This document shows, one piece after another, positions 15,966 through 64,000 of a stretch of 64,000 bases of DNA; positions within the stretch are counted from its first letter, which is position 1; the number at the start of each line of letters is the position of its first letter. The notes under the pieces are model-generated. The model had not been told where the DNA came from. It made no database searches and saw only the letters and a program-made list of their open reading frames with translations. The translations under genes were made by a program, and so were the position numbers. Origin of the DNA: Psammoneis japonica (taxonomy: Eukaryota); assembly GCA_008632985.1 (NCBI GenBank), contig QPGO01000021.1, positions 62,001-126,000 of the forward strand. Direction: 5' to 3'.

Positions 15966-16173
15966 CATCCAGGTGTGGGCCATGGCGGTTGGTGTCATTG
16001 TCCATTGTCACAGTGCATCAAGATTGCTTGTGGGCAACCAAGCTGTTTCAGGGTTCTTAAATCACATCCAGGTGCGGGCCGTGGCGGCAGGTGTCATTGT
16101 CCATTGTTGCGGTGCATCAAGCACAAGGGGAAGATTGCTTGTGGGCAACCAAGCTGTTTCAGGGTTCTTAAAT
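15966..16173. repeat. Tandem duplication of ~100 bp
   Basis: CATCCAGGTG...GGGTTCTTAAAT occurs at 15966-16062 and 16065-16173. Confidence 0.9.
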
Positions 16174-19860: not shown

Positions 19861-20287
19861 TACAACCCATTGCAAAGAGTAAATCAGCAGCAATGATACG
19901 ATGTTCGTCTCGCGGTGCCGACGCCGCTGAATGAGGCGAGTGAGCCCTTGGTACGTAATAAATTGTACCAGCTGCTACATCCATTTTATTTAGGACACAC
20001 CTTGAAGTAGAAGGTTACAGTCGCGCGATGAACGTTCCTAGAGGATCCTACACAAGATATGTGTAGCTCTAATACTGCAGTATAATCTCACGGGATCTGT
20101 CCGTAGCTTGGTCACTGACCCACGCTGACCCACGACCTACAAGCACTGATCGGCGCCAAACGTGGACCATGATGGAAGGATCGATAAGCAATATGCAGAC
20201 TTACCAAAGGTTCGACCACCATCAAACATCATCAGCATTAACGCACAAAAACACAATCAACAACCACAACAGAACACCGAAATAAAA

Positions 20288-23916: not shown

Positions 23917-24161
23917 TGACAGAAAATGAAGATGACTGGGTGGAAGAAAACAATGGCTCCTTGCTGCTGTCTAAACAGCAGATGAGTCTCCGTGCAGAGA
24001 CCGTCACAGGAGCCAAAAGACTGGTGTCGTGACATCGGCACTGCTGTCATCATTCTTGTGAGCCATGTGGCTCAAAAGCAAACTACATCGCATGACGCAC
24101 GTGGAACTAAGAGCACACACAATCATGTGTGACAAACTAAAATCTTGTTCAAATCCTGTCA
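23917..24161 (-). repeat. 3' LTR of copia element
   Basis: Gapless match to 30892-31136; adjacent to the PPT. Confidence 0.95.
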
Positions 24162-24268
24162 CTCCCCAGTTTGCTTGAGGGGTCAACAGCGATGGATTCG
24201 AAGTCGGATTGGTTGAAAGCCTTGGGGTCGAAGTTCCAAAACATTAGAGGACAAAGGAGGTTCCAGAC

Positions 24269-28577: not shown

Positions 28578-28894
28578 TCAGGTGCCAGGAGACATTGCAA
28601 GTTGCCTGGTGGCAGAGGCTTGCGCCTGGTGAGATGAGCCAGAATGGGGTTGCCATTGGCTGCATCGGCTGTGGCGTCAGATTGTGCGGAGGCTGACACA
28701 AGATTGTGAGTGTTGGCGGACAAGTTGACATCGCCATCGCTGCCAATGCGGAGGTCGTGCATGTTGACCGCCATCGAGTCGTGGCAGTTGGCAAGAATGA
28801 TGGCCTTGGTGGATTGGGGCAAGGTGTCCCAAATGCACTGATGGTCCGGCAGGATGCGACGCCATTGTTCCTTGGTGAGGGAATTGCCGCGAGT

Positions 28895-30079
28895 TCACGC
28901 AGCATGAGCTTGGATGATGTCAACATCACCGTCGATGTCGAAGGATGCATCATCATCAGGGTCGTCAGGGACCAGGTCATGTTCGTAGATGGCACGGCGT
29001 GGAGCGCGAGGAGCCGTCTTGGCGGTGAACGTGCTGTCGTGCTGTGCTGCAGCAGAAAGCAAAAGTCCACAGTGCTCCTCGCAAGAGAGTCCCTTGCCAT
29101 TCTGCATGTGGAGCTGATCGGCCTGATTCTTCACCGAACAGAGTTCCTCGACAGGATGTGCGGCGTTCTCAAGCATGACATGTTTCTGGCCAGCAGAAAA
29201 ATGGTCTGCACCTGGGACAAGAGCTTCATGCTTGCGGAGCTGGTCCTGCCAGTGGAGCATGAAGGCATGAGTGGAACCTTTCCAGGTGCCATCACCAAGG
29301 CGAGCAGTGGCAAGGTACGTGAGAAGGGTCGAGGACTCCAGGGATGCGCGAGTGGAAGCAAGGGCATGCTTGGAAAGGTCACGACACACCGCTTGAGCAT
29401 CAGAGGAGCTGACGTGTTGACGAACAAGAGCCTTGCCTTTGTCATTCTGCAAGATCCGTTCGAGTGCGGCGAACATGTGCTTCTGTTGTTCAGCAAACAA
29501 GGCCTTGTCCTCAGCTGTGGAGGGCTTGTGCGTCGGGTCAAGAATGCGTGCGACATCTTGGGAGCGGGCCTGTGCAATGATGGAGGTGTGCCACGTGTGC
29601 CACTGTTTGTCGGACTTGAGGAGTGCGAAGGTGAGTGGGTCACGTTTGATGCCTTGTTTAAAGTCATGCATGGGATCACGTGGTTTGGGTGGCAACAAGC
29701 CAGGAGTGGGAGCAGATGGTGCTTTGCCCATGGAGAGGGACGCCACATGCTCAGGACTAAGACGACAGTTGGTGAACTCCTCTTGTGTGAACAATTGAGG
29801 GTCATTGCTGACATCCGCGCTGCCACGCGCTTTTGCCATGTACCGGCTAATCAACGCAGCTGTCTGTGCTTTGTAACCACGTGGCAAAGGCATTTGATTG
29901 GTTCCGTTGTTGCACACAAGGGCATCCAATTGCATCGGAGTAAAAGTGACAAGGTCCTGATGCAAATCGATTCCATCAATGTTGAGAGCAGAGCACAATG
30001 GACTGTCTGCGGCTTGATTCAGAACAGTGCCTAGAATGTGCTCGAGGCCATCGATTTGTTGTTGCCTGGTGAGAACCAT
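28895..30079 (-). pseudogene. copia gag
   Basis: The 394-aa ORF contains FKQGIKRD...W..W, typical of diatom copia gag, and lies upstream of the protease. Confidence 0.8.
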
Positions 30080-30891
30080 GTTGCAACCAGGTGGATGTCG
30101 GAACTGGCTGGAGTCGGAGGGTGAGCTTGAGGTAACTTGAAACTTGACTTGAATCTTGACTTGATGTCTTGGACCACCTCAAGAGTCAGAAGCCGCCGGG
30201 CTGTGATGTCCCGTTCGCAGTTGAGTGCTGAGCTTCCTGTCTGGTCTGCAGAGTTGTGCCGGCATGTCCGAACCTGCAGCTGGCAACGCTTTTGGTTGCT
30301 TGAGAGCGGAGCAACGGGTTAAAAACCCCTGCTGACAAGCCAACTGGAGGTGGACAAGACCTCCGAACCATTCTCATTTTATGTCGGTTGGATGACCTGA
30401 TCAGGCCGGCCAAATTTGGCACTGTGGAGGGACGAACAAATGCAGGAAATGCACCCTTGCCCCAACGTGGGCTGTGGTCATGAATTGCTTCCTCTCACAG
30501 TTGTCCTCATGGACCTTGCAGGACTGTAGAAGACCAGCAATCTGGTGTGGATACGAGGCGGTAGACTTGGCGTGCGCAGAGCAGAGCCAGAGTCAGGGAT
30601 TTATGTCATGTGCGCGTGAACGCGTGCGGATGCATTGGTGGGATCCGCTGTGAGGAATCCGGAATCTCAGATGTCTGAGAATTCAGGAATTCCTGGCCAA
30701 ACAAATGTCTGTTGAACAAATGTGTCCAACGATGGGAGGTGTCGGATAAATCCAAACATGCAGATTTAATCCAGCATCCAGCAGTGAAGAAGGCAGACAC
30801 ATGCTTCCACCGCCAACAGTGCGCGTCGTCGAAAATTTCTCGATGACAATGATGAACACTCAGTGGACAACAAAGAGCAAGACTGTCAATC

Positions 30892-31136
30892 TGACAGAAA
30901 ATGAAGATGACTGGGTGGAAGAAAACAACAACTCCTCACTGCTGTCTAAATGGCAGATGAGTCTCCGTGCAGAGACTGTTGCAGGAGCCGAAAGACTGGT
31001 GTCGTGATGTTGGTGCCACTGTTGTCATTCTTGTGAGCCATGTGGCTCAAAAGCAAACTGCATCGCGCGACGAGCGTGGAACTAAGAGCACACACAATCA
31101 TGTGTGACAAACCAAAATCTTGTTCAAATCCTGTCA
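30892..31136 (-). repeat. 5' LTR of copia element
   Basis: Gapless match to 23917-24161; followed by the TSD GCATC. Confidence 0.95.
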
Positions 31137-32568
31137 GCATCACTGCCAGACAGTCAGTCTTTGGCACTCCACCAAGTTTGCCCAGATTGGAGGCAATGTG
31201 TCACTTCATCACACAACTTGCACTTGCGTGAGCTTGGTGTGGTTGCCCCAATTGCCTGTTTGCCTTTTTCATCATCTGGGTTGCTGTTGCTGTTTGGAGG
31301 TCATCTTCTGGACAACACCGCTGTCACTGGGTGGAGTTGCTGTGGGTTCTGCAGACCTTGTCCCAAGTGTCCTGGGATGTTGCATTCCACCTTGTGGTCA
31401 CAAAAAGAAGCAAGTTGGTGCCTCGTCAAGTGCAGACTGCAGCTCAGTGCTGGCTGCCTGTTGCACTGCACACCACTCACAAGAAATCATGAAGAGGTGT
31501 GCTGCTGGCTCTGGCTTTTTGGCCACTGTGGCTGCTCCACACGGTCATCAAGATTGCACCTCTTTGGGGTGTGGAGCTTGTGCAAGAAGCAGCATTGCGA
31601 ACGCACAGGGCGCACACAAAGCACTGTGAGTTTGTGCCTCTTGTGAGCCCCCACAGCACTTGCTCTTGCAGGTGTGAAGAAGGCATCCCAGAGTGGCCTT
31701 GAATGACCCAAGAGCACTTTTGGCAGGTGGGTGCTAAAGTGCCCTGGGGTGCCAACTGGAGGGAGACATCATCAAATTCCACCAGGGTGAGCTGCCCCCC
31801 AGTGAGGTCCCCTGTAACCTTGCAGGTGCTGTGACCCCAAAAGGCTGAGTGAGCTGGGCCCACTGCTGCAGCTGGGCAGGTGGGGGGGCACCTGGCACAG
31901 CACTTGCACCTGCCTTCATCTGCTGCATTTTGACCACAGCAGTGTGCAGTTCTGGCAATTGGCAAGTCACAACTTGACACCACTGCCACTTGCCCTTGTG
32001 GGGGCCCTGGGCCATTTTGCAGTTGTCTTTGCACCAGAACAAAAAAAATCCTGTGTTGGCTTGGCACACCCCCCTTGGTGCAGATCCCTTGCTGCTGCAG
32101 TGTGACAACTTCAATGTCTTTCCATGACTGGAGAGCTGCTTTGCTTGTGCTTTTCTGGCAGCAGGCAGAGAGGTGGCAGCGCCTGCTCCAGCTCCTCCTG
32201 GCACGCAGTCCTCAGTGGCGCTGGCAGCATGGGTGCTTTTGGGAGGTGGCAGGGGCATGCTTGTGCCATGGGTTCCAGCAGCAAGTTTTGCCCTGGCAGC
32301 ATCCAAGCACCAGCACCAGCCAGTGCAGCACTGAGATGAAGTGATGTGCTCCAGCCCCAGGTGGAACTCCACATGACACAGGCCCAAAGAATTCTGCACA
32401 CAAGCTGTGGACACATGAATGATCACCAACAAAAAAGAGGCAATTTTGTGGGTGCAACTCTCCTCTGCTCTTGAAGCACTTCATTTCTGGTTTGCCTAGG
32501 TGCATTTTTCAAACATTGAAAAATGTGCCCAGCCCATTTCAGCTTTCACAAATGAAGAAAATAAAAGC

Positions 32569-32813
32569 TTTTGGCTTTGCAAAACAGGGAGCATGAGGAA
32601 ACAATGTTGCAGACAAAGATCACATGCAGAAACACATGCGCGTGACACGCAGCGCCATCCAAAAACCTCTTGTGTCACAGCACAGTGGTGCCTTTTGGCT
32701 TTGCAAAACAGGGAGCATCAGGAAACAAAGCAGCAAACACAAAGATCACATGCAGAAACACAAGCGCATGACATGCAGTGCTGTCTAAAAACCTCTCGTG
32801 TCACAGCACAGTG
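32569..32813. repeat. Tandem duplication of ~120 bp
   Basis: TTTTGGCTTTGCAAAACAGGGAGCAT...GTGTCACAGCACAGTG occurs twice. Confidence 0.85.
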
Positions 32814-32957
32814 ACGCAAGGTCCTGCCTGGAGCCAGAGCACGTCAGGCATGCTTGTTTCCCCCTGGCCTGCTGCTGGCTGCTGCTGAGCATTCACACTG
32901 TGCAGGCAGCTTGTGAGAAGCAGCGGCCGTTGCTCTGGAGCTCGTGCAAGAGAGCGC

Positions 32958-33522
32958 TCAAATTGTTTGGGAGGTGAGAGTGACCTCAACGGTTGGACAG
33001 GGTGGGTCATTTTGATGACTCATCTGCTGCAGGTTGAGAGAGACTTCTCGTCAAATTGCGCGAGCTGGGTCATCGCACGTGCAAGCAACAAGCAAGCAAA
33101 ATCTCATGGCAAAAAGAAAAGTTGCTGCGAAACTCTGGCGAAACTGCGAACTGCGGCGAGAAATGTCATCCGCGAACTGCGAAGACGACTGATCAAAGCG
33201 ACATGTTTTCGTGCAAACTGCACTCAAAGCGCAAGCAAAAGAACAAAAATAAATCTACTCTAGAGTAGAGAGTGGCATTCAAATTGTTTGGGAGGTGAGA
33301 GTGACACCACCACGGTTGGACCATGGGTCACGATAGGTGGTCATCGCACGAGCGCGCAAGAACTACCAACTTGAAACAACTTGAAACTCGCGGGAAAAAA
33401 GAAGCTGCGAAATAATAACCGCGAACTGCTGCCAAATAACGGCGAACTGCAAAGACGACACTGATCAAAGCGACTTGTTTTCGTGCACACTGCACTCAAA
33501 GCAAAAGAACATGACAAATAAA
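32958..33522. repeat. Diverged tandem duplication (~250-300 bp unit) straddling the right edge of island 2
   Basis: TCAAATTGTTTGGGAGGTGAGAGTGAC at 32958 and 33279; both copies share GGTCATCGCACG and CTGATCAAAGCGAC...CTGCACTCAAAGC. Confidence 0.8.
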
Positions 33523-33724
33523 GTGGCTTTGGACAAGCATGATCTTCCAGCTTTACCTGCACTCGTAATGAAGAAAAACCGAACACAAGTACACAGCACC
33601 GCTGTGGCAAGTCCCCAGCGATGAAACTAAATCGTAGAACTTTGGCAATGTTCTACAAAAATCGTTCTCAGCTTGGTTTCAAAATCCTCTCATAAAAATC
33701 AAAGCGTGAAACGCACGAGACAAG

Positions 33725-34821
33725 ATGAAAATGAGTCGCAGTTGCCTCCTAGTCCTTTCCACTCTGCTTTGGATTGGAGCTGAGCGCGCTGTCGCGAACG
33801 AAGCGCCTACGTGTGGTGAACCATCATACAACAAGCGAAAGGACAGGGCTGTTTTCCTGTGGAGGAAGTGTTTTTCCGATCAGTGGTATTTGGAAGCGGC
33901 TGGTGGGAGACAGCCTGTGGCAGTCAATGCCAGCCTAGAGCGGATACATCCGACATTGCGATCAGCAAGAAGGCCGTTGGGATTGAGTTGAACAAGGACT
34001 TCATCATCAATGTCCCAAGGAAGAAGAAGGATGGATTCAATTTCCTTGTCAAGAATGACGGGAGTGGATGTTTGACCATCAAGTCGCCGGAAGACATTCC
34101 CCTCTACGTTGGAAAGAACCGCGTGGAGTTCTCTAAGTCCATCAGTGTCCCGGGCCTCAAGCCGTGCGATGGACCGCTGCTCGAATACCGCTTCGACACT
34201 TCAAGCACCCTTTACAAAGACTCAGGAGTGAAAGGATGGGATGGTGCGACAGCAGGGCGAGGCAGGATTTATTACACCAGTTTAGGTTACTCGAGATATG
34301 GCGCCTCCCTTGATGGGAGGGATGATCACATGATAATCCCAGAGTCGAAAGATTTGAATATGGAAAAGTACACCTTCATGACATGGGTTCGGTACTCGGA
34401 TAATTCGAGACCCGACGACCAGGTTTATGCTCTTATCCAGAAAACAGGAGCTCTTTGGTTCAGCATTCACAAGGAACAGCATACGCTCAGGGCGGGGGGT
34501 AAATTTGGTGGCTGCACCAAGGATGACAATTTCCAGTTGAAAGGGATCAATCCCATTCCAACTGACACGTGGACCCACGTTGCTGTAACCAATGACCGAA
34601 ATACGATGAAGGTTTATATCAATGGAGAGTTGGATGTAGAGGGAGACATCGCAAGCCCCGGAGACTATTGTAAAACTCAGGCGCCCTTTAACATAGGCTC
34701 CGGATTAGGAGAGACCCGGGCATCAGATATGCACTTCCTTAAAGGATACATGGACACGGTTCGCATCTATGACAAGGCTCTCCCTCAGGATGAAATCCGT
34801 GCCGAAATGCATCGCCATTAG
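33725..34821 (+). CDS. Secreted protein with C-terminal LamG/concanavalin A-like domain
   Basis: Signal peptide MKMSRSCLLVLSTLLWIG...; one frame change near 33945; YTFMTWVR, TWTHVAVT, VYINGEL and GYMDTVRIYDKAL are LamG_3-type motifs. Confidence 0.8.
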
Positions 34822-48097: not shown

Positions 48098-50316
48098 GCA
48101 CCCCTGTGGTAGGGGAGAATATGGTGATGTCATGGTTACGTGGCAGTTTATATCTTATTCATTATATTTTTATATAAATGCACTTACATTTATTTATGCA
48201 TTTGTACATAAATGCTAATAGTGGCAGGAAAAATCCTGAACCATATTTTTACTTATGGAATATACACATTCATGTGCATATTAACATTGAAACTCAACGC
48301 ACGGCGAAGCCGTGCGCGCGCAACCACGAACACACACACAGCTCCCCTGCCAAAGCACTGTGTACATTCCATAAGTAAAAATTCCTATTCCACAGCTCCC
48401 CTAAAACTCTAACCACCAAAAACCGAGGGGTCGGAAGCGCACTTTTTGGAAGACAGCGCACACACCAAAACATCACGCGTTTTGACGACTCGACCATGAT
48501 GTTGCCTCGTGGTTCTTCCCCATCGCCTTCCCAGGACGCCGATCCCACTGATGCCGTTGCCAACAACACTGATGCAACAGGCAATGTCATCATTCCAGTT
48601 CTCATGGGTGTGACACATGCAAAATAAGATGCCACAAACTCACACTGTTGTTTGCACGCTGCGCCGCCTCCCACAGATGCCATCACGAATTCCAACGCCG
48701 CACCTGCATTTCGGCCCCCTGGCATGCCCGATGCTGTTGCTCCCACCCTTGCTGCCACAGGCACTGTTGACACTGTCATTGTCTTTTGCCAACAACATCC
48801 ACAATGAAGTGCCAATGACTCACACTTCTTTCATTCTCACCCCACCGCCTCCCACAGACACTGTCACGAATTCCAACGCCGTGCCTGCATTTCGGCCCCC
48901 TGGCATGCTCGACACTGTCAATCCCACCCTTGCTGCTGCAGGTGCTGTTGATGCTGTCATTGTTTTTGCTTTGGAAGGAGCGTGATGGATGATGGCGGAC
49001 CAGGAAACTCACGCAACCACAACCGCAGCAACATGTGAAGGAGGATGTAGCTGATGGAATGCGGGCAGAGAAGGTGCCGGCATGCAAAGTGGCAGCATGG
49101 CTGTCGACATGGCACCAGTTTTGAAGGTCTGACAGTGATGAACATGGTGAGTGTTTGCCAAAAGCACGTTGCTGCCTGCCTCTGTTTTGGCAACTTACAA
49201 AAACAGTGTGTTGTGCATCATGTGTGGAACTCAAACGGCGAGAGTGGCCTCTTGTGGAGTTGTGCATGATGACCTGGTCCTGGAAAACAGAGCAGTGTCC
49301 AAGTCACATGCACCACTTGAAACCTTGCCAAGTCGCCTGCAAACAAATGCCAACTCACTGACCTCTCCAACTTGAAACTGAAAAACTGTGAAAGCATGCC
49401 TGCCAGCATCCAATTGTTGTCAGGTTTCTAATTTGTGGAGAGCCACATGATGTGTCTGTACATTCTAAAGATTAGACTGCACTCGAGCACCAACCAAGCG
49501 TCGCTGTTCATGTCCATTGATGTGTCGTCCATCAGCAGGCCGTGGTTGCCTGGGTTTCCTGGTCCGCCATCATCCACTGTGCTCCTTCCAAAGCAAAAAC
49601 AATGACAGTGTCAACAGCACCTGCGGCAGCAAGGGTGGGAGTGACAGTGTCGGGCATGCCAGGGGCCCGAAATGCAGGCACGGTGTTGGAATTCGTGACG
49701 GCATCTGTGGGAGGCAGCGGGGCGAGAATGAAAGAAGTGTGAGTTGTTGGCATTTCATTGTGCACGTCATTGGCAAAAGACAATGACAGCATCAACAGCA
49801 CCTGCGTCAGTGCGGGCAGGAGCAACAGTGTCGGGCATGCCAGGGGCCCGAAACGCAGGTGCGGCTTTGGAATTCGTGATGGCATCTGTGGGAGGCGGTG
49901 GAGCGTGCAAACAACAGTGTGAGTTTGTAGCATCTCATTTTGTGTGTGTCACACCCACGAGAACTGGAACAATGACATTGCCTGTTGCATCAGTGTCATC
50001 AGCAATGGCATCAGTGGGATTGGCATCCTGGGAAGGCGATGGGGAAGAACCACGAGGCATCATCATGGTCGAGTCGTCAAAACGCGTGTTTTTTATGTGG
50101 AGAAAAAGAGCTCCCAAAAGTGCGCTTCCGACCCCTCGGTTTTTGCTGGTCAGAGTTTTAGGGGAGAATGTGGTTCAGGATTTTTCCTGCTGCCATTGGC
50201 ATTTGTGCACAAATGCACAAACAAATGTGAGGACATTTGTGTGAAAATGCAATGAATGAGATGTAAACTGACACGTAACCATGACATCACCATGTTCTCC
50301 CCTGCCATGGGGGTGC
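48098..50316. mobile_element. ~2.2-kb non-autonomous foldback element with very long inverted arms
   Basis: 48098-48245 pairs with 50169-50316 and ~48396-49025 pairs with ~49537-50168. Each arm contains an internal ~180-bp direct duplication; the spacer is ~500 bp. Confidence 0.88.
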
Positions 50317-51315
50317 TGCCACAGGGGTGGATTGTGTGTGGAAAGCAAGTGAGATTGAAGATGGGCAGTCAGGCGCGCGCGGAACACATCATTTTCAGTT
50401 TGTGACAGGTTCTTTGGTTGTCACCTGTGTTTCTCACAAGTTGAGTCCATTGTCCTCTTGAGGCATGAGAGGAGCACAGAGGAGGTCTGTCCCAGGTGGC
50501 TCTGAGAAAAGAAATGTGCGCCACCATCAACTTTCCTGTTCTTGTGACAAGGAGCACTGACAAAAGAACTCCAAGAATCAACCAGAGGGTGCAGATGTCT
50601 CCATTCTTTCCAGCTTCATGCAACGTTGCAACAAGCATGCATCACAAGCTTCAGGGTGCATCTGGGGGACCCAAAGCTCAGGTCTGCCTCTTTTGGGCAG
50701 GAGCTGGGGGTTTGTCAAACAGCAACCAGGCTCCTTTGTGCATGGAGTCATGAACATTTCCACAAGAAAATTGTGTTTGTCCTTCTGAGTTGTCAAGTGA
50801 CCACAACAATTTTGCTTCACAGCTTCATGGTTGGTGTCTCCCGCACAAGGCCAATCTGTGCACAAATTTGTCAAGTTTGTGCAACCAAATTTGTGCACAG
50901 CATTTGGGTTGTGCCCATGCACAAAATTTGTCCCCAAACAGGAACACACCTCAGCAAGCAACAAACAGAAAACAGAGCACCTTGTCACAGTCATTTGAAA
51001 AAAATGTGCGGATGTGTCCAAAACAGAATGTCCAGTTTGTTGGCACATTTCGCAATCATCTGAAAAAAATATGCAATGAAGGTGTCCAAAACAGAAAATG
51101 TTCAATTGTCAGCAAATGAGAATTTGAGTTTTCCGCTGTGCCAAACACCTGTGATGACAACACAGGCATGGGAGAAAGTGATGTGTGGGGGTTGGGGGCA
51201 GCATCGAGAAGCATGGGAAAGGAAGGGGGCTGCTCGTGTGACTCCAGCATCAATGTGCCAAAGAGTTGTCAACATGATGAGTCACATTAGAATGATCTAA
51301 GCCAGAGGCAATGCA
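50317..51315. other. TpA/CpG-depleted degenerate sequence (remainder of island 3), unassigned
   Basis: Dinucleotide signature continues until ~51315; no confident domain. Confidence 0.6.
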
Positions 51316-51838
51316 TCAAGGGGGTCGTCGTTGGATCGGCTGCATTTGAATGCACGGACGACACCCTTCACTGTACTTGCGATCTGCTACGTATGCTGAT
51401 GCAATGCTTACGTCACAATGATGTCGTGGATCTAGAAGATGTGGTATCCGCGTTTCAATTTCAATTTTGGTCTTGTTTACGCGCAAGCGACGATCTTCTG
51501 TCCAATTTTGGAGAACAACAATTCGATTCGATCTTCTTTCCAATTTTGGAGAACAACACCAAACACTACTTTAGTCATAAAGTTCGCCGGATGCGTATTG
51601 AGACGTCTTGCACTCACCGAACTCAACTCCGTGGGTTGCGCATTTCAGACTAGAAAGAATCCAAACTCCAAACTCACCTTTTCTCACCATTCAACATTCA
51701 AGCCAACTGCAAAGAATCGGAAGAGTAAGAGTGAACCGTTGAACAAACAGTATTCATTGACATCGGAGATAGATGTGTTTCTTACATCAACAACGTGTCG
51801 TTTGTTTTGAAGGAACCTTTAGTTTGCAAAAGAGGGCA

Positions 51839-54110: not shown

Positions 54111-54496
54111 CAGTGGTTGGTGATTGCAGACTTTTTCGTGTCGGTCCGGCAGTCGGGGGGTCGGGCAGTGGGGCAGTCGGGCAGTCGGGTTGTCCGTCTG
54201 AATTTGAAAGTGTGTCCCTCGGATTTTAGAACGGGATGGGTTGTTTGGCACAGATGAATTCTTCGGATTCGCAGAATTGTCATTGAGGACCACTCCCCCG
54301 GATCGCAACACATTTTAACTGGCACACAGAAAATTTCTACGTGATTTCTACGCACCTCGCACAAATCACGTGCCTCTGGTACAAAACGTGTGCCCTCCAC
54401 CCCAATCCCGCAAAGGGACACCCACCGAGAGGTTCGCTTCGTGCACTTTTGAACTTCATTTAGCGCCACGCCCACTCACCACCAATCCAAAACAAC

Positions 54497-57400
54497 ATGG
54501 GTCCATCTCTTTCAACAGGAAAGTTGATTGACAGAAGAGACAAGAAAGGTCTCTTTCAGAGCTTTTGCTCTCTTGACACTGTTGTGAATTGCGGTGATTC
54601 GGGAAACTCGGTGCGAGTCGACACCGCAGGATTGAACTCAAAAGGAGGTCCAAAAGACAACAAAACAAACAAAGAGCTAAGACTGGTCTTAGATTGTCAT
54701 GACAAAACTGTGGAAAGGCTCTTTGGCTTTGGTGCGAATGATGGTTTCGCTGTCAAGAAACGACGACCCAAGAGAGCGAAGCAGACAGAGCGCGCCAAAC
54801 CCGAAGCACTGTTGCTGAGGAAGCGCCATCGCAGCAAGAAAGTCCTGCATCCAATCAAGGTAGCCAATGTGGCCATGCAACACCATTTGATGTGGGTGGG
54901 AATGCGAAGCAAATGAGACGTCTGCTGGCAGAAGAGATGTTCGCAAAGAAAGGGGGTGACGTCGTTTGGCTTGTCGGGATGGCCGACCATTGCTCTCCGT
55001 CAGATTTTGGTTTGCCAGAAACCGGAGATCATGCATTTTGGAGAGGGAACCAGAAGCACACTGCAATGCAATGCACTGTGGTGGCAAACATTGTCAGGCC
55101 AACGCTGTTAGACAAAGACGCGAGCAAGGACGATTTCGTAAAGAAATTCAGGACGCGGGGCGACGCACTTACCTTGTTGGTTACAAATGCCAAGACTTCA
55201 AAACGGCATCACTTGGAAGTGCACTTCTGCCATGCATTTGTGGGTGCATGCAAGTTGTGGGACATGCAGGGAGCCGCAAGTCGGGATTGCCAGCACTTGC
55301 TCCTGCGGCACGCTGAAGAGGGCTCCTTTGTGGGAACGAAAAGGGCAAACATGAGACGGGCAACTGCGTTGGCACAAATTCTGCCGCTCGTGCCACAGGT
55401 GGAGAAAGAGACACGGGGCGACTCGCACGAAATGGCAAAGCTTGCTTGGGCCGCCCAAGACACGAAGCAACGCTTTTCGCCCACCGACATCCCCAAATTG
55501 GCTTTGGAAGGCGAAAGCCCCACGATCCAACCCGATGACGTGCCTGTGTTCGTCGAAGACGAAATCAAAAGCAAAGGCATCGCATGGTGTAAGAAGCTTG
55601 ACAACGAGATGGAAAAAAGAATCACGAATGTGTTCAAGAACGGCTGGGATGACATGGAAGAACCGCCAATTTCCATGAACGAAATGGTCCAAGAGCTTGA
55701 GGAGAATTGCCCTTTGCTGTGGGCATTCACCAGCATTGAGAACGCACCGAACGCCATGTGTCGAGCCAAATGTAAGGAGATGAAGTGCACTCGCCGGCTC
55801 CTCACCTGCTTGTTGACATTGCGCACCAGGAACCCTCACAATCTTCAACACCTTGCCCTTGTGGTGTGACTCGGAGCCATGACTCGTGGAAATGGAGCAG
55901 ACGCAATGGGGTGGCACATTGGACTGATGGTTGACAAGTCAAAAGCCCGGAAATGGATGAAAGAGAATTGTGAGAAGCTCCGCAGCTTGCAGCGTGATGC
56001 CCTTGGCAAGGATGCTCACAATGGCTTGATCTTTGACAATTTTCAATTCTTCCAAACTCCTCTGTTCCAGCGAGGCAGGCGGTCCTCGATTCCTGTTCAT
56101 GCTGCAATGACAGCACACGTGAGATGGAGATTGCCCCAATGGAAAGCAGGTGACACTGTGGCGTACCTCAGTCTTGGAGCGAATCAAGGCACACACCGTT
56201 TCGACGTCGTTGCAAGCTCTCCGGTGACTGATGACTGCTGTCAAATTGCGTGCGCATTGAAGGCTCAGGTAGATTGCGAAGTGCCTCTTTCAAATTCAAG
56301 TGAAAAGACACAGGCAAAAGCAGGTGAGACCATGTCACTTGCGCTCCCAGTCGACGGATGGGAGCTGCACACATCGCCAACGCTCATGACGCACCCACCT
56401 CTTGCCCGTGATGGCAATCAAGAAACTCCCAAGATGCCGGGAATGGATTTGTCCAGCAGTGATTGCTGCGATCACGTAAAGGCATTGAACCAGTGCTTGT
56501 TTCTCAGACAAAACCTCGTCCAAGAACGAATCGCACGAGGAAGCCGCAACAGGGCAATGACCGAAGTGCAAAGTCTGACCGTTGACTGGTGGCGGTCGCT
56601 GATTGATCGCGTGGGAACCGAATTGGAAACGGAGCATGGCAGACTTGTGAGCACATGGAATCCACACGCAAAGAAGAAGTCCTTGTGGGTTTGGACTGAG
56701 CTGTCTCACCATGCGGAAACCAAGGCGGAAGGATTGAAAGATTGCATGCGTGAGATCTTTCTAGAGATGAAAGTGTTGGAAGAAAACAGCGAAGGCAAGT
56801 TGACAAAGACAGCGCGTCTGCCTTACCTCAAGACACACACGCACAGCAACTGGAAGACAATTGAAGGTGTTCACAAGCATGTCGCAGATTTGTACGAGCA
56901 CGCGATGCTGGACGGTGATTCTGAAAGTGACGAAGAGGCGCTTCTCGCAGCCTGTGACACTTTGACGCCGATCCACGGAGATCTTCACGTCGGATTTCAC
57001 ATGCTCGACGCGATCTACCACCTGGCGCATGAAAGCAGCTTAAATCCCATAAAGCAGATGCTTGGAATGAAACGAATCACAGCTGAGCCAATGAAGTCTG
57101 GCATCTTCGCCGCGACAGAGCTTCTCAAGATTTGCCATGGCCCGCTAAAATTGCTGTTCCTTGAACGTTTTATTGACGAACAAGGTGGGGCGGCTCTTGA
57201 CTCAGCAACAATGACAGCAGGTGACTCAGAACAGGCTCTCAATTTCGGGACACAATTTCAGTGTTTCCTTGATCTACAGTGCCTCTGTGACACAGACGCG
57301 GTGTTGCAGTTCCACGCTCTTCTGGTCAAAGCCACTGACCTTCTCTTTCTGCACGAAGCAAGTGTCAAGGAATCAGATGCAGTGACGCCACACAAACTGC

Positions 57401-58194
57401 TGATCGAGTTGATGCCTCTTTTCCAAACATCAGGGAAGGCAAAATGCGTCAATCTCTGTTTCTCTTGGATGGAGGTGGCAGCGGCAATGACCCCGGCAGA
57501 ATTGCTGGAGGAGTTTGTTGATCACACTGTCAAAATGAACGCAGACAAGAATGACATTGCGATGGATGACCTGTGTGAGAAGGGTGGTTGGTTTTTGAAA
57601 AGAGGGGACAAGCTGCCAACCGAACAAGATCCACTTGCTGTCAGGTCTTTCTTCTTGGGTCTTGTGCAGAAGAGTCTTGCAACATGCAGAGAACTGGCAG
57701 GGGGGGAGAAGCAAACCAAGCGAACAAAAGCTTCAGAACGCAACGAGCTCTTTGGCGCAGTGCATGAAATGTGCCGGGCCGCAGAGGTGGTGCACGACAA
57801 CGGTCGAATGAGCCTCGACATCACACCATTTGCAGAAGCCCACAAAATGGAGGCGCAAGACTTTCAAGATAAAAAGTCGCGCAAACAATCACTGATCCCC
57901 CCAAATGCAGCCACAATCGAAAACCTTCACATCATCGTGAACGAGGTGGAGTCCGACTCCGACTCGGACTGTTCGAAAACAGACAGCACTTCAAGCGAGG
58001 GCAGCACACAACAAGATGAAACAGCTTGTGAGCAGTTGTCACGGGCAAGCTCAAGCGAGAGTGGCTGGGGAGAAACGACTTGCTCTGGTCAACAGACCGA
58101 TGAAGATGGGCTGTCCGTAATGGTTGATGACGGTGAGTTCATGTTTTTGTCACATGAAGCCGGTTCTGTCCCCATTGAGGACTCAACCGACTGA
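54497..58194 (+). pseudogene. Academ/DUF6589-like transposase
   Basis: Motifs LIFDNFQF, HGDLHVGFHMLDAIY and NDIAMDDLCEK fit the D...(G.FH)...D..E layout as I recall it. ORFs 54892-55869 and 55879-58194 are in one frame, split by a TGA. Confidence 0.6.
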
Positions 58195-58242
58195 GACAAT
58201 GATGAATCCGTCACACTGGGTGACCGCAAACCAGCAACAAAG

Positions 58243-60365
58243 GTGCCAGTGCCAATTCCAGCCATCCCAACAACAATGGCCCATGGCAACTGGTTCACAC
58301 TGGGCAACAAGAGCATTGTCAGGAAGACAGAATCCCGAGAGACCAAAACCACTAAAATGGCCAGGAAAAAAGAGCGAGCAGCCCAAGCACTCTGTCACTT
58401 TGAAGGTTCCAATGCGACCTTGCCAGAGATCATTGAAATGGTCGAAATGGGATCCCTCCCTTGTCGAAAGGAGAGATGGAGCGACATTGCAAAGGGAGAC
58501 AGCTCAAGTCCGCCCAGAAAGCATCGGCGTCAAATCAGCGGGACTGGTGATGGCCCCACGACAACTGTGATCGAAGCAGAGAATGATTTGATTGGCAAAA
58601 TGAACAAAGAAGAGATCGATTCAATTCATGAACTGCACACGCACCAGACCGAGGCCATGCGCCGACTTGGATTTGAAAAGGAAAATCTGCTTCTAGTTCA
58701 GCCAACTGGAACAGGCAAGACACGGGCATTTGAGGCGACTGCAACACTGTTGGATGGAGTGAGCATTTTCATGTCACCCTTGGTGGCCACAAGCGCAAGC
58801 CACGCATCTGGAATCAACGAGAATGTGGAGATGAAGTGTTTGACCGCGGCCGTGTGCGATGCAGCCACCGAGGAACAAGAATCAAGACTCATGGCAGGTG
58901 TCTCTGCAATGCCAGCGGACAGTGATGCCGCCTTGGCTCTGACAATGTCACCAGCTGAGTTTGCGAGCAAGAAGTGGCAGGCATTCCTGTTGGTGGAAAT
59001 TCGGCGTGGCATCATCCGACTGTTGGGAGTCGACGAAATCCATCTCACAGCACTTGATTTCACATGTCGAGAGGAGTTCTTGAAGTTAAAGGCACCTCTC
59101 AAAATGACACAGGAAACAACCAATGCGCCGATCGTGGCCATGACTGCCACACTTGATGCCGAGCTGAAATCAAAGTTTGAAACAGTGACAGGAATGACAT
59201 TTGATTCCTGCATTTGGGACACGAACATCGGCAAAGTCAGACTCATTCGACATGCACGAAACAGGACTGCCAACATCATCAAAACAAAGCTGAAGTCGTG
59301 CCTTGCCGATGAGGGGCGAAATGCCATCGTGCGCTGCCTCGAGCGATGCCGCTGCGAACACACGCTACTTGCGACGGTCGAATCCTTGCTGCTGTCAATG
59401 GAAATCGATCAATGTGCTGTAGAGGCCTTCCATGGGAAGAGATCAACGAAGATGAAACTGTGCCCAATCCATCTCTTCAAAAACAACCCTGGCCTCCGAG
59501 TTCTTGTGTGCACAAAAGCGGGCAACGCTGGGATCGACTCGAAGCATTGTGGCGATGTCATCATGGATGGACCGCCATCCAACATTTGCGACTTCGTTCA
59601 AATGCTTGGAAGAACCGGAAGGCTTGGTTCGGTTGATTTTGGTGAACGGGGACCAGAGTGCCATGTGTTGTTAAGCGTGTCTCTGCTTGAAAAGGTTCTG
59701 AAACAAATTGAAAGGGAGGAAGATCGTGAGCAGCGAAGAACAGCGCGACGGCGCTTCTTCGAGTTGATGGAAATCTTGTCATTCTCAACCGTCTGCATCA
59801 ATGATCAGTTTCAAAGACGATTCGCTCACCCGACAATGCGCAACAAGCTCCTCATGCAGGGATCATGTCACCGGTGCCGTCACGTCCAGATGAAGACCAA
59901 ACGAGCCGTCCACGTCCAGTCACTCCCAACCACGACTTTCAAGATAGAGCTGCCAACTGCGACAAATGCTGGGCATGCTGCAAGGACAAACATGCAGGGG
60001 AGAATGAAATGTGGTTTGGCAAGACGGCCCTTACAATGACACTAGCGGGTGCCTTTGATGGCAAGCGAGCTTCTTTGAATGAAGTGCTTGCTCTCCTGAA
60101 AGAGAATGCCGAGACAATGTGGCCACGAGCGCACAACACCAGGTCATCCGGAACACAAGATGCTGAACTTTTGCTGCTTCAGCTGATTGTTTCTAAAGTT
60201 CTTCGACACCGCTGCCGACTAGATGCCTCCACAAAGAACACAGGAGCGCAAAGACAGAAGATTGAGATGTCGTGGAACACTGACAAAAGAGGAATGCCAA
60301 TGTGCCGGTTGGATGCCTCGTGGGACAAGTTCCAAAATGTGCTTGCTGAAAGTGGAGTAAATTAG
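58243..60365 (+). pseudogene. RecQ-like SF2 helicase of the transposon
   Basis: QPTGTGKT (I), SPLVA (Ia), VDEIH (II), MTATL (III), AFHG, CTKAGNAGID (V), QMLGRTGR (VI) and a C-terminal CDKCWAC after a frameshift; same frame as the upstream transposase. Confidence 0.88.
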
Positions 60366-60532
60366 GCCAAATGACCGACAACTCTCCGGAATCACAAAGC
60401 AAAAATGAGTTCTGCACAATTCAATGCCTCGTGGGACAAGTTCCAAAGTGTGCTCACTGAAAGTAGAGTAAATTAGCCCAACAAACCGACGACTCTCCAG
60501 AATCACGAAACAAAAATGAGTTCTGCACAATT
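60313..60532. repeat. Tandem duplication of ~110 bp covering the helicase stop codon
   Basis: ATGCCTCGTGGGACAAGTTCCAAA...GAGTTCTGCACAATT occurs twice. Confidence 0.88.
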
Positions 60533-61417
60533 GTGCCGTCAAAAGCGGTCTCCCATGTTCCAAGTCGGCAACACAGCACACAACAGAACAATCTCCACAA
60601 ACACCACTGCTTGCATCATCAACACATTCCACAAAGTAAATCATGAGGCCCTTTCGTGGGGAAGAATCTGCATGCGGACCGAGAAACAAACAGAAAAAGT
60701 GCCGGACCGCTGTCGTCGGTTGGAAACACACCAACCACGAGCCGCGACCTCCAGAGCTCGCCTCAAACACCCCAAAGGTGCCCCACACATCAGGTGAAAC
60801 GAATGAGGCACAGGCAAAGGGATGAGAGGAGGGAAACAACAACAAACTCGACGAAACATGCCGGAACGACGACAACAGCGGCAGACTCATGCACCGAAGG
60901 AATCGAAATCGACATTCTTGCGCGGAGTGGCACTTGTCAAAATTCAGCCAACATGCAATGGTGCCACAGACAAATGTCGACAACATCCTGAGTGACTCAC
61001 CTCGTGAAAACATGTGACAACGACGGTGGACGCGAAACAAATTCGCCATGGTGGCCATGCAAATTCTGCGTAGAATTTTTCGTTTTTGTGCCAGGAACCA
61101 AAAAAATCGCACGTTGCGATTTTTTTGAGCTGTGCCAGTTAGCCTGGCACAGTGACATGTTGCGATCCGTGGGAGGTCTTCTCTGTCTTCTTGCGTGCCA
61201 CTTGCAGACCTCCCAGTTGGGAGTGATTGAGGACATGAGAGGTTGTGGGGACATCCTAAAAAATCGACAAATTCCCTGCGACAGGTGCGTGGAACGGTTT
61301 TTCGGGAGAGCTCGAAAGTTCTGAAAAATTGGGATTGCCGGCATGGCATGTTCAAAAATGCACTCAGTTACACACAAAGACAATTTGTTGTGAATTCTAC
61401 ACGAAAAAGTCACACTG

Positions 61418-64000
61418 GGGAAAACATGTTGAACAATGAGTGAGTTTGTGCGATGCGCCATTGTGGCGATAAATTGGAAAAAAAAGAGTGTCCGTGCACC
61501 TCGCTGCAGCCCCAAAAATGGCATGAGACATCAAATGTGATGGTCATCCGCATCACCGGTGCGGTGGCCATGCCACTCAGCAGCCACAATGCCGGCCCCG
61601 ACGGCAGGGCCCTGCGCACGTACAGGCAACACAGCATGCAACGGCACACACCCACACCCACAAAGAAAGACAAGTGGTCAATGCTCCCCGCAGGCCTGGT
61701 TTTCTGTCCGTCCATCCAACTGGTGTGCTTTTGGCGCCACAATTTTGATGTTGTTGCCCGTCACCGCGTTCACCATTGGGAAGAAAACAGAAAATGGAAA
61801 CCGGTGCTTTTGCGATGTCGGGGGCACTCGTCACATGTGTGCTGCAGCCGAAACAACATGATGGCGCGGAGCCTGTGTCTTGTTGCCCTGGACTCACCCT
61901 CATCCAGCGGCACTCATTCTGGTGGTGTCAACATGTTGTTTGTGGGTTTGGTGCGATGCAAGTTGGTTTCGTTTGCGGTTGTTTCTGAGTCCAGTTCCCC
62001 AAGTGTCCATTCGAGAACACAAATGGTGAGTTCAGGCATGCAGCAAATCAGTCTTGTGATGCTCTGCACACTGGCAACAGGTGACAACGTCCAAGCTCTG
62101 TTGCTCCAATGCCAACCTGTCAAACGCAGCCCAAAGATGCCAAGGATGAAGAGTCTGATGACACAAGCTGTCCTCAGGCACAGCAAAAAAGCACTGCAAT
62201 TCATGTTGCCATGCCATTTTCATCACCTGTGTTTTTTGACACAAATCTGGCTCTGGTGTCTGGAAAAGGAGCCAGCCAACAGTGTTCTCTCTCCTGCATT
62301 GCCAGCGACAAAAATTTGAGGTTGGGTGTTGTTGGCGACATTCAAAAGCTGCCCATTGCAACTTGCCACCTTGGAATGATGCCAAGACGAGTCGTCTGTT
62401 GTCCTGCAGGACAATTGTTTGCCATCAGGTGTCTGGAGAGCAGAGTGTGGGATGGAGGGGCCATGGATGCGGGGGCAACTTTGGCAATTGCGCTCGATTC
62501 CTTGACAACACTTCTTTTGAGGACATTCATTGGTGAGACTTTTTGCAATGGAATGAGGACGCATGATGACTTGACACTTCCATTGCCCTTGATCTAACTT
62601 CAATCACCCTCACAGTGCAGGGTTGACTTGGGTCCTCATGAGTCAACAGTTTCCATGGCAAAGGCGAGCCTCACAGAATTGAGCACTTCCAAAATGCCAG
62701 GCATGATGCGACCAGCTCCACAGGCTCCAGCCGTTTCTCTTGGTCAGCATGGCATGAAGACCAACCTGCAAACAGATGGATCCTGGTGTGCTCACATTCC
62801 AATGACCAAGGCATTGTTGGCGGCACTGGGCCATGCGCCAAGGCAAACTTTTGGTGCATGGTGGTGTGCATTCTGTGTCAGCTTCACCAAGGAATGGCTC
62901 TTGCATCTGTCAATTCCAAGACACAGATTTGCCAATTTGTGGATGACGGCACAGGCACTCCAAAAATGAAGATTGTGGGGATTGGTTGTCATGATGCACT
63001 TGACTGTTGAGTCACATGGTTCCTCCTTTGAAACTCCTTCCATCACAGCAACCAGATCATGCCTCAAGGACAGACTCCATCTTTGTCCAATTGTGAGGTG
63101 CTGGGCATCAATCAATGTCCTGCTGGCCCCAAGTCCTTGGTTGAGGGTGACAGAAGAAAGAACCCACTGCCTGAACATGGAGGCCAACAGTCTCAATTGG
63201 AAGTCAGACACTGTTTGGAGCCATGGATGGGAGCTTGGGTGCAATTCTTGGACCAGACAGATGGACAGCTGTCTTTTTTGCAGCTTTGGAAAGAGCCATG
63301 GAATGGATCACTCTTGCTGCTGGAGACTTTCATTGTTTTGAATTCCAAATGTTTTGAGCAGAAAAGCACATTTGTCCCAGCCATGGGTTGTTGATGGAGA
63401 TCTCATTGAATCTTTTTGGAATTTTGAAAAGGCTGCAATGGAGGCACTGGTTCAAGAAATGAATCAAAAGTGGGAAAGTGAGGAAAACTTTGCCCCTTCT
63501 GGCAATGCAAGAGGTGGCAGAGTTTTGATTGATCTGGGAAACACAATGTCTGATGGAGAGGATGAGAACACTCCAGCCAGTGGTGCCGCATGCTGACTGC
63601 AGATGACGTGTTGGTGATGGCAGACGACAAGACAATGCTCCTCTAGAGTGGGCACCGATGAGCAATGGCAGTCAAAGTCCAAGCATTTGCTGGTCAAAGC
63701 AGCAGTGATGCACCCTTCTGATTTGGCTGAGCTTTGGTGCAAAGCTTCCAATGATGTTCTTGTGCATCTCTTCCTTCTTTGCCCAGTGCTTTTGGTTTGA
63801 GTTGGCATCCAAACATTCCCTTTGTTCACACTTGGCTGCAACTGCTGGTGTGCGCCGTCACTGCATCAGAGGCATTGGCACTGCAATGACGTGTGGAATT
63901 GTGTGACAAAGTTTTTGTGACACATTTGCAATGTGTCACTGCAATGTTGGAAAGTCAGTTTGCAGCCAGAGGTCTGTCCATCAAATGTCATGTGCAATTT
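61418..64000. other. TpA-depleted degenerate repeat sequence running to the window end, unassigned
   Basis: Almost no TA; CG loss increases towards the end; no confident domain. Confidence 0.6.

Follow-up and report, generated by a model that had tools for sequence, protein, structure and literature searches.

The window analysed here, by which we mean the whole 64-kb stretch of DNA, carries a non-autonomous transposon with long inverted arms beside a QSOX-like gene, whose putative first ATG (48020) lies 78 bp from the left end of the transposon. The features of this locus, together with a Copia element found elsewhere in the window, are listed in Table 1. The putative exon 1 of the QSOX-like gene is an ORF (47580–48038) that ends in the motif preceding the thioredoxin CxxC; it gave a weak PDB match (E 0.16) and no Pfam family. 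Likewise, no Pfam match was obtained for the ORFs of the right flank, those of the genes to the right and a 771-aa ORF. The left edge of a TA-poor domain, at about 48411, falls within the transposon, so that the left outer arm of the element lies outside and its right arm inside of this domain.

Table 1. Features discussed in the text, in window coordinates (o/e, observed/expected; TSD, target site duplication)
Feature	Position	Strand	Properties
Copia-type LTR retrotransposon	23886–31136	-	LTRs 23886–24161 and 30870–31136; RT ORF 24597–26915; RVT_2 match
QSOX-like gene (thioredoxin + Erv1/Alr)	46294–48020	-	Pfam on 46294–47514; ATG at 48020
Left TSD copy, GATTGTGTG	48090–48098		9 bp; identical 9-mer abutting both termini
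Non-autonomous foldback/TIR DNA transposon	48099–50329		2,231 bp; high-copy family; perfect 11-bp termini; 9-bp TSD
Left outer arm	48098–48245	+	TA-rich, spared; 19 TA; TA o/e 1.19; GC 0.34
Segment unique to left arm	48248–48395		148 bp; gap in arm alignment; own 24-bp inverted repeat
Left inner arm	48396–49023	+	TA-poor from ~48411; 3 TA in 628 bp; TA o/e 0.09
TA-poor, CA+TG-rich domain	48411–51287		13 TA in ~2.9 kb; TA o/e 0.08; CA+TG o/e 1.79; CG o/e 0.46
Central region without inverted-repeat partner	49024–49538		Arm alignment decays; TA o/e 0.18
Right inner arm	49539–50168	-	TA-poor; 3 TA in 630 bp; 87–89% alignment to left inner arm
Right outer arm	50169–50316	-	17/19 TpA converted; 2 TA; TA o/e 0.18; CA+TG o/e 2.15
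14-bp tandem duplication, right terminus	50302–50329	-	14-mer twice in reverse complement; copies differ by one TG/CA swap
Right TSD copy	50330–50338		9 bp; identical 9-mer abutting right terminus
Single-copy right flank, TA-poor	50648–51287		Depth 57; one 3,609-nt contig; 1 TA in 640 bp

The full pairing of the arms exceeds 148 bp and joins 48098–49023 with 49539–50316, and the termini of the element could be refined to 48099 and 50329. Since a 9-bp target duplication flanks the element, both arms came by one insertion, although a chance match of the 9-mer is not nil as it occurs 3 + 2 times in the window. We are thus dealing with one element and a single insertion. The 148-bp segment that is unique to the left arm (inverted repeat at 48245–48268 and 48359–48382) is depleted neither in TA nor in CpG (10 TA, CG o/e 1.22) and is multi-copy by read depth. 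The depth of run X1 contigs rises from ~58 in the flanks to 3,000–12,000 within the transposon, and a self-BLAST detected no further copy of the element in the window. None of its six internal ORFs contained a Pfam family. A 9-bp target duplication is associated with Mutator elements. In this feature, its very long inverted arms, its 181-bp internal tandem units and its lack of coding capacity, the carrier resembles non-autonomous TIR elements of the foldback/Mutator-like (MULE) type, but a transposase or an autonomous partner of the carrier was not identified.

The first-pass annotation had described a gapless match of 148 bp between the arm ends, with 19 TA dinucleotides in the left copy that read as 12 CA, 5 TG and 2 TA in the right. 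An ungapped alignment of 48098–48245 with the reverse complement of 50169–50316 (148 columns) confirmed the match, the example strings given at the time corresponding to columns 61–83, and our recount of the 19 sites agreed. The outer arms differ at 24 bases. While the 38 bases of the TA dinucleotides amount to 26% of the left outer arm, they account for 17 of these 24 differences (P = 4.6e-6 for at least 17, binomial). The remaining differences are indeed few and, as had been noted, include two TG/CA swaps (48105–6 and 48222–3), next to G/T at 48143 and CA/TC at 48181–2. The first of these swaps may be a product of the alignment because the right terminus bears a 14-bp tandem duplication. All 28 AA/TT steps and all 22 AT steps are unchanged between the outer arms, and the earlier description of the change as near-saturating and context-specific fits these numbers together with the 17 of 19 converted TpA. 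Overall, the left outer arm contains 10 CA and 13 TG and the right outer arm 23 CA and 16 TG. Since the CA and TG outcomes are intermixed along the right outer arm, both strands must have been mutated.

The right outer arm is part of a larger compositional domain, which HMM segmentation places at 48451–51250. Five sharp TA-poor domains of this kind occupy 47.7% of the window. They have a TA o/e of 0.04–0.09, a CA+TG o/e of 1.55–1.82 and a CG o/e of 0.16–0.68 and contain the Copia element, the TIR element and a RecQ-like ORF. Apart from the border within the transposon, edges of such domains lie at 12.25, 19.8, 22.26, 33.25, 51.29 and 54.4 kb. The TAs that survive show a strong bias in their four-base context, which would be typical of the site preference of an enzyme. 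The TA-poor state continues unbroken from the right arm into the single-copy flank, where the TA o/e is as low as 0.02 and the CG o/e 0.18, while the DNA on either side has a TA o/e of 0.45–0.50. At three Pfam-supported genes that point their 5′ ends towards a TA-poor domain, the upstream sequence stays TA-normal over ~365 to 600 bp.

To establish the direction of the change, we turned to the Copia element, which resides in another TA-poor domain, and compared its RT ORF with 120 homologues. At the 19 columns with at least 70% tyrosine, the ORF has no tyrosine and instead contains 10 Cys, 6 His, 2 Phe and 1 Arg. Other conserved columns are unchanged (His 13/13, Cys 3/3, Leu 30/30, Gly 28/28 and Pro 19/19), and conserved Arg is replaced by Cys at 6 of 20 columns. 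The two LTRs of one element are identical when it inserts. Those of the Copia element are now 89.5% identical and differ by 8 CA/TG swaps, 5 CG-versus-CA/TG and 2 TA-versus-CA/TG differences, 3 other transitions and 4 transversions. The loss of TA, which had been proposed as the direction, is hence supported for the process in this window by the tyrosine columns, 16 of 19 of which became Cys or His, and by the eight LTR swaps: the process removes TA after insertion and at the DNA level. For the outer-arm pair itself, we infer the same direction; its two surviving TA sites are too few for a direction test based on tetranucleotide context. ORFs in TA-poor domains encode 0–0.8% tyrosine, and four of six ORFs in TA-normal DNA 3.2–6.2%. 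The exceptions are the ORF at 721–3483 (no Pfam family; 0.3%) and an ARM-repeat ORF at 10493–12160 (1.4%); as these two are equally or nearly as poor in tyrosine, a low tyrosine content alone does not mark the domains. The RecQ-like ORF is free of tyrosine, and its PDB alignment, at ~25% identity, is too distant for scoring tyrosine replacements.

The inner arms differ by 14 CA/TG swaps, where ~2 would be expected under uniform CpG decay, and by 16 CG-versus-CA/TG differences. An origin of all these swaps from TpA was considered and dropped, as CG, CA and TG occur together in two columns when the four 181-bp units are compared. Some CA/TG swaps thus derive from CpG, and the excess between the inner arms is only indicative.

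Other copies of the family were surveyed via the contigs and depth of run X1, which may be the assembly's own source, with 40 of 186 variant rows listed. At 48185 and 48209, nearly all of them share the C of the right arm (768 of 807 and 1668 of 1725 in depth, respectively), and the words bearing T occur at about single-copy depth. The first-pass annotation had named a family consensus with CA/TG at the converted sites as a sign that the left arm had gained TA. Among the variants listed, this holds in part, namely for these 2 of the 17 sites, and C at both positions fits either an ancestral CA or the amplification of an already mutated subfamily. On the guess that the rows are ranked by share, the other 15 arm sites may be polymorphic among copies. 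In the same 40 rows, the opposite swap occurs in other family copies at many sites, e.g. 48744–5, 48859–60 and 49221–2, and 49225–6 and 49263–4 are TG in this copy and TA in most others. Two scans of metagenome contigs with conserved arm motifs yielded no locus each, and a protein search with a 72-aa ORF spanning the right arm, aimed at Tyr, His or Cys at the TA sites, gave no candidate. In the TA-poor flank, run X1 differs from the window at two positions (AGC>AAC and CpG>TpG), neither of them at TpA, and this comparison provided no evidence of current mutator activity.

We consider it likely that a mutator which turns TpA into TpG or CpA across domains of a probable diatom genome hit the right arm and spared the left outer arm. 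A 2.2-kb non-autonomous foldback transposon would have inserted once, beside an older TA-poor relic and upstream of the QSOX-like gene. Silenced, transposon-rich domains would be struck in the DNA itself, with A:T-to-G:C transitions affecting the TpA of either strand, for which the simplest chemistry would be that the adenine after T is deaminated to inosine and copied as G. CpG would be lost more slowly in these domains, as deamination of 5-methylcytosine would predict. From the right flank, the mutated domain would run through the right arm and the centre into the left arm, most of which it includes, and end between 48411 and ~48560; because it covers the right arm, the right outer arm would have lost its 17 TpA. 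The left outer arm lies within ~400 bp of the start codon of the neighbouring gene and would have kept its TpA, presumably protected by the promoter of this gene. That the right arm changed in situ, as claimed before, fits the course of the TA-poor domain through 640 bp of single-copy flank with one TA. Since the left outer arm was spared, the mutator appears to be guided by the domain of the chromosome, presumably through its chromatin state, and not by homology between repeats. The roles of a deaminase, of chromatin and of the promoter are what we infer from these patterns.

It seems unlikely to us that the arms diverged by a gain of TA, with CA/TG being ancestral and a RIP-like cytosine deamination (CpA/TpG to TpA) limited to the outermost 150–300 bp of the left arm. 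The C in nearly all other copies at 48185 and 48209 would agree with this, the data may equally be put as a conversion of 17 out of 39 CA/TG sites, and the left arm, with its TA o/e of 1.19 and a TA/AT of 0.86, comes near the usual RIP threshold. However, its CA+TG o/e of 1.38 and (CA+TG)/(AC+GT) of 1.53 are not RIP-like, and the sole directional test in the window, the RT tyrosine columns, gives TA loss. A gain would further require a TA-free ancestor, which only an earlier loss of TA could explain, and in addition a second process that was seen nowhere else, and it offers no reason for the change to end where the TA-poor domain starts. If the variant rows are ranked by share, 15 further ancestral CA/TG sites should also rank like the two listed. 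To a similar degree, we doubt that the same mutator acted elsewhere, so that the asymmetry already existed in the donor copy or gene conversion from an unmutated copy later replaced the left end. Conversion donors exist in a high-copy family, and the change in TA density (~48411) adjoins a structural discontinuity, the extra segment at 48248–48395. Against this, the unbroken TA-poor state into single-copy flank points to a local domain, the T-bearing depth of about a single copy at 48185 and 48209 reveals no abundant TA-rich donor, and the element shows the TSD and the intact termini that a simple insertion would leave.

A different chemistry, i.e. error-prone synthesis of the polymerase-eta type (WA motif) or aberrant thymine-glycosylase repair in methylated DNA, either of them fixing A:T-to-G:C changes without a deaminase, is improbable as well, if a little less so. 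The repair of G:T mismatches is expected to be frequent in domains as depleted of CpG as these, and the literature describes T-to-C changes that become fixed through aberrant TDG-initiated repair (PMC4041421). Yet a polymerase with WA preference should also alter AA, while the arms changed at 0 of 28 AA/TT and 17 of 19 TA steps, and the four-base bias of the surviving TAs would again be typical of an enzyme's site preference. As the loss of TA is close to saturation and that of CpG incomplete (inner arms, TA o/e 0.09 and CG o/e 0.7), the former is no proportional by-product of CpG decay. Finally, we regard as very improbable both a misjoining of repeat copies and an ADAR-like A-to-I editing of a hairpin transcript that was subsequently copied into DNA. 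High-copy repeats are prone to misassembly, but X1 contigs span both element/flank junctions with 0 differences, even if X1 may be the source of the assembly, and the T variants occur at single-copy depth, so that the asymmetry of the arms is no obvious assembly error; the TSD likewise argues for one element. As to editing, the transcript of a foldback element would provide an ideal double-stranded RNA, and a 5′ U is preferred by A-to-I editing (10.64898/2026.01.13.699255, Discussion). Editing of a hairpin RNA should nevertheless affect both arms equally, the element bears the hallmarks of a DNA transposon, and the single-copy flank and both LTRs of the retroelement show the same signature, acquired after insertion.

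The domain mutator that we favour may be compared to known processes with similar products. Like fungal RIP, it is a dinucleotide-specific transition hypermutation that wrecks transposons in DNA and involves TA, CA and TG. Its direction is the opposite, since RIP makes TpA from CpA and the process described here destroys TpA: the domains have a TA/AT of 0.01–0.2 and a CA+TG index of 1.5–2.2, and tyrosine codons are lost, not gained. RIP also depends on duplication and affects both copies of a duplicated sequence, whereas this window has a mutated single-copy flank and one spared repeat arm, and its host is not a fungus. The first-pass annotation had excluded RIP on the ground that the left copy keeps CA/TG sites. 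These sites are indeed kept, but the argument is weak on its own because RIP seldom goes to saturation. The decay of CpG that 5-methylcytosine deamination causes in methylated transposons takes place in the same domains and leads to the same end products, TpG and CpA. It is present in the window as a second process, slower than TA loss, but cannot yield TA-versus-CA/TG differences or Tyr-to-Cys/His changes and leaves the 17 arm sites unexplained. With hyper-editing of the ADAR type, the changes in the arm share the A-to-G direction and the preference for a 5′ U/T, and inverted repeats are its classic substrate. ADAR editing, however, targets RNA and is not passed on to offspring, while the changes in this window are genomic, post-insertion and arm-asymmetric and reach into non-repeat DNA.

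The closest precedent comes from mutation-accumulation lines of Bigelowiella natans, in which 230 of 231 mutations were A>G or T>C changes, every one of them at a TpA and within two integrated viral regions (Mettrop et al., bioRxiv preprint 2026, 10.64898/2026.01.13.699255). As reported there, and as in this window, the process turns TpA into TpG/CpA on both strands in discrete regions of foreign or mobile DNA and leaves TpA-depleted, CpA+TpG-enriched clusters; those of B. natans are enriched for reverse-transcriptase and DDE domains. The window follows the same rule, with 17 of the 24 arm mismatches being TA versus CA/TG and 16 of 19 conserved tyrosines replaced by Cys or His. In the figures of that report, TpA still accounts for 3.3% and 9.2% of dinucleotides in the hypermutable viral regions, whereas the domains described here are near-saturated and also CpG-depleted. 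De novo events were observed in cultured B. natans, at 1e-7 per site per generation, while the process in this window is known from its sequence alone. A border that splits one repeat and a spread into single-copy flank are features of the window that the Results and Discussion of the B. natans study do not describe. The hosts differ as well: B. natans is a chlorarachniophyte (Rhizaria), and the genes of the window match diatoms best. For the PPWD1-like ORF, the best named matches are all diatoms (47–51% identity, no match >58%), and the QSOX-like ORF has its nearest clusters among the Bacillariophyta. On the evidence of these two genes, the host is probably a diatom and not B. natans. TpA-directed DNA hypermutation was published only in 2026, in one alga and, as far as that account goes, without an enzyme or a targeting rule (10.64898/2026.01.13.699255). 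In full-text literature searches, we found no second report of directed A:T-to-G:C hypermutation of DNA at TpA.

A probable diatom thus appears to run a region-limited mutation process that was previously reported only from one unrelated alga, and if so, this process is not the curiosity of one lineage. Diatoms are a major and genetically tractable group of phytoplankton. Operation of the process in diatoms would explain why many of their transposon relics should be hard to annotate, as these would lack tyrosines, have an excess of Cys and His and contain long spurious ORFs, the latter because TAA and TAG stops are erased. The locus represents a natural experiment, with the same sequence present twice 2 kb apart, one copy mutated and the other not, and its border at 48.41–48.56 kb is directly comparable with chromatin maps. 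We further propose, with somewhat more doubt than confidence, that diatoms share with chlorarachniophytes an active, homology-independent defence which deaminates the adenine of TpA across whole silenced chromatin domains, erases nearly every TpA and halts a few hundred bases before active gene starts. If this is true, the defence would have a readable four-base preference, in which ATAB/VTAT are hit and CTAA, TTAA and TTAC are spared, and every tyrosine codon would be erased from transposons along with TpA within evolutionary time. TpA editing would then be a widespread counterpart of fungal RIP in the SAR clade.

The first-pass annotation had described an inverted repeat with one arm (48098-48245) keeping TpA dinucleotides that its partner (reverse complement of 50169-50316) has nearly all exchanged for CpA or TpG, and our recount found this description to be accurate. 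Pairwise alignment of both arms yields 148 ungapped columns with 24 mismatched bases. The left arm contains 19 TpA, at which the right arm carries CpA (12), TpG (5) or TpA (2), and the other differences comprise two TG/CA swaps, one G/T and one CA/TC. As 38 of the 148 arm positions lie in TA, the binomial probability that at least 17 of the 24 mismatches fall on TA bases by chance is P=4.6e-6. Both surviving TAs of the right arm are found in TTAC there, and one of them reads TTAT in the left arm.

The inverted repeat is much longer than these arms, with 48098-49023 pairing with 49539-50316 around a centre of 515 bp, and each arm harbors two tandem units of 181 bp. A further 148-bp segment of the left arm represents a small nested element or, alternatively, sequence that the right arm has lost by deletion. 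Judging from its termini, the flanking 9-mer duplication, the lack of Pfam families in its six internal ORFs and the sequencing depth in public-run contigs, which is about 58 in either flank and 3,000-12,000 within the element, we conclude that this is a non-autonomous foldback/TIR transposon of high copy number that inserted here once. Self-comparison of the 64-kb window revealed no further copies.

TpA is nearly missing between about 48411 and 51287 (13 TA over 2.9 kb), including 640 bp of right flank (50648-51287) with single-copy depth and only one TA (o/e 0.02); the DNA on both sides of this stretch has a TA o/e of 0.45-0.50. Two-state segmentation of the window called five TA-poor domains with sharp edges, which sum to 47.7% of its length and show TA o/e of 0.04-0.09, CA+TG o/e of 1.55-1.82 and CpG o/e of 0.16-0.68. 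Long ORFs overlap on both strands of these domains, a by-product of the erasure of TAA and TAG stops. In the last domain, 54892-62319 may be the decayed remains of a large insert of mobile or viral origin. A RecQ-like helicase ORF without any Tyr in its 598 aa (58243-60039; top PDB match E. coli RecQ, E 3e-9) is located there, as is a 771-aa ORF (55879-58194) that matches no Pfam family. The opposite extreme is a CTAG/TAG-rich low-complexity stretch in TA-normal DNA (240-470; TA o/e ~1.7, CA+TG o/e 0.4-0.7). A contig of the public run, possibly the window's own source, differs from the window over 50278-51400 only at 50977 (G>A in AGC) and 51134 (C>T in CpG), neither at TpA, and over ~530 bp of left flank there are no differences.

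Features of the foldback element, the TA-poor domains and the neighboring genes
Feature	Position	Strand	Remarks
Extra 148-bp segment, left arm only	48248-48395		Own 24-bp inverted repeat; multi-copy by depth; CpG o/e 1.22
True termini of the element	48099 and 50329		Perfect over 11 bp
Identical 9-mer flanking the termini	48090-48098 and 50330-50338		Interpreted as target-site duplication
14-bp tandem duplication	Right terminus of the element
Copia-type retrotransposon RT ORF	24597-26915	-	RVT_2; 772 aa; inside TA-poor domain
TA-poor domain 1	12301-19750
TA-poor domain 2	22301-27450
TA-poor domain 3	27701-33200
TA-poor domain 4	48451-51250
TA-poor domain 5	54401-64000
TA-normal gap, domain edge to DSP phosphatase ORF start	19797-20162		Pfam-supported gene, 5′ end facing domain
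TA-normal gap, domain edge to Laminin_G_3 ORF start	33250-33859		Pfam-supported gene, 5′ end facing domain
TA-normal gap, domain edge to QSOX-like ORF start	48021-48410		Pfam-supported gene, 5′ end facing domain

The direction of change within the domains is apparent from the RT ORF of the Copia element, which we aligned to 120 homologues and scored at the 19 columns with Tyr in at least 70% of them. At these columns the ORF possesses Cys (10), His (6), Phe (2), Arg (1) and no Tyr, while conserved His (13/13), Cys (3/3), Leu (30/30), Gly (28/28) and Pro (19/19) are unchanged. The replacement of Tyr by Cys or His (TAY-to-TGY/CAY) is TA loss, and the Cys found at 6 of 20 conserved Arg columns (CGY-to-TGY) is CpG decay alongside it. 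ORFs in TA-poor domains contain 0-0.8% Tyr and four of six sampled TA-normal ORFs 3.2-6.2%, the remaining two being an ARM-repeat ORF (1.4%) and the 920-aa ORF 721-3483 on the (-) strand (0.3%). The latter is Pfam-free, has internal tandem repeats at 1707-2173 and 2253-3410 (66-82% identity), and its product is a repetitive protein without recognised family.

The two LTRs of the Copia element were identical at the time of insertion and now differ by eight CA/TG swaps, five CG-versus-CA/TG, two TA-versus-CA/TG and seven other bases; hence, each LTR acquired its changes in the chromosome independently of the other, starting from ancestral self-complementary steps (TA or CG). The same pattern is seen between the inner foldback arms, whose 65 mismatches include 16 CG-versus-CA/TG and 14 CA/TG swaps, where uniform CpG decay would yield only about two swaps. 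Two columns of the four 181-bp units combine CG, CA and TG, and because some swaps descend from CpG, the swap excess serves as supporting evidence only. The observed changes took place in DNA after insertion; they are near-saturating, TpA-specific transitions that hit both strands and stay within the domains, and TA loss outpaces the accompanying CpG decay (TA o/e 0.09 versus CG o/e 0.7 in the inner arms).

For the arm pair itself, we infer that the right arm lost TpA, since TA loss is the documented process in the window, the right arm runs on into a TA-poor domain including single-copy DNA, and both arms arrived jointly, as the target duplication shows. A gain of TA by the left arm would require a TA-free ancestor and a second, C-to-T process that is seen nowhere else and ends by chance at the domain edge. 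We consider such a gain very improbable, even though nearly all other copies in the public run carry C, as in the right arm, at 48185 and 48209 (depth 768/807 and 1668/1725). Because all of the 40 listed variants, out of 186, have a share of at least 0.71, our guess is that copies of the family vary at the remaining 15 arm sites, as expected from independent TA decay. Many element sites show the opposite swap in other copies among the variants listed, and at 49225-6 and 49263-4 the window's copy has TG and most other copies TA. The C of other copies at 48185 and 48209 fits either an ancestral CA or the spread of a subfamily that was already mutated; motif scans of metagenome contigs and a protein search found no outgroup copy of the arm. 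Overall, the in situ loss of TpA proposed in the first-pass annotation is supported, and at the level of the arms its direction is likely correct.

As to the underlying process, WA-motif errors of a polymerase-eta-like enzyme are unlikely given that AA steps are unaltered between the arms (0 of 28 AA/TT steps changed), and editing of hairpin RNA is also unlikely as the two arms differ and non-repeat DNA is affected. The changes probably reflect adenine deamination at TpA, which would be aimed at silenced chromatin. The targeting does not proceed via repeat recognition, because one repeat arm is spared and the unique flank is mutated. No part of the element lies closer to the putative ATG (48020) of the minus-strand QSOX-like gene than the spared 313 bp, and each of the three Pfam-supported genes facing TA-poor domains has TA-normal sequence over ~365 to 600 bp upstream. 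Active promoter chromatin might protect this DNA, or selection might act on promoters (n=3). The four-base context is skewed between 131 surviving domain TAs and 1,299 TAs outside (chi-square P 6e-19), with depletion of ATAC/GTAT (0.05x), ATAT (0.10x) and ATAG/CTAT (0.13x) and enrichment of CTAA/TTAG (3.7x), TTAA (2.5x) and GTAA/TTAC (1.85x). This suggests an enzyme with site preference, albeit as a lead only because the control TAs stem mostly from coding DNA.

The only report of a TpA-to-CpA/TpG rule that we found in the full-text literature is a 2026 preprint on Bigelowiella natans (10.64898/2026.01.13.699255), and its signature is the same as in the window. There, two integrated viral regions took 231 of 302 new mutations in mutation-accumulation lines, 230 of the 231 being A>G or T>C and all 230 on TpA; the genome contains 124 TpA-poor, CpA+TpG-rich clusters enriched in reverse-transcriptase and DDE domains, and an ADAT2-like DNA adenine deaminase was proposed (10.64898/2026.01.13.699255). 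A description of TpA loss in diatoms was not found in the full-text literature. Among the best 120 matches of the PPWD1-like ORF, all named ones are diatoms (47-51% identity) and none exceeds 58%, and the two closest atlas clusters of the QSOX-like ORF are mostly Bacillariophyta, so that B. natans is an improbable host of this DNA. The window thus seemingly adds a second, unrelated algal lineage to a kind of process described only months ago, and the arm pair provides a natural control for how this process is aimed.
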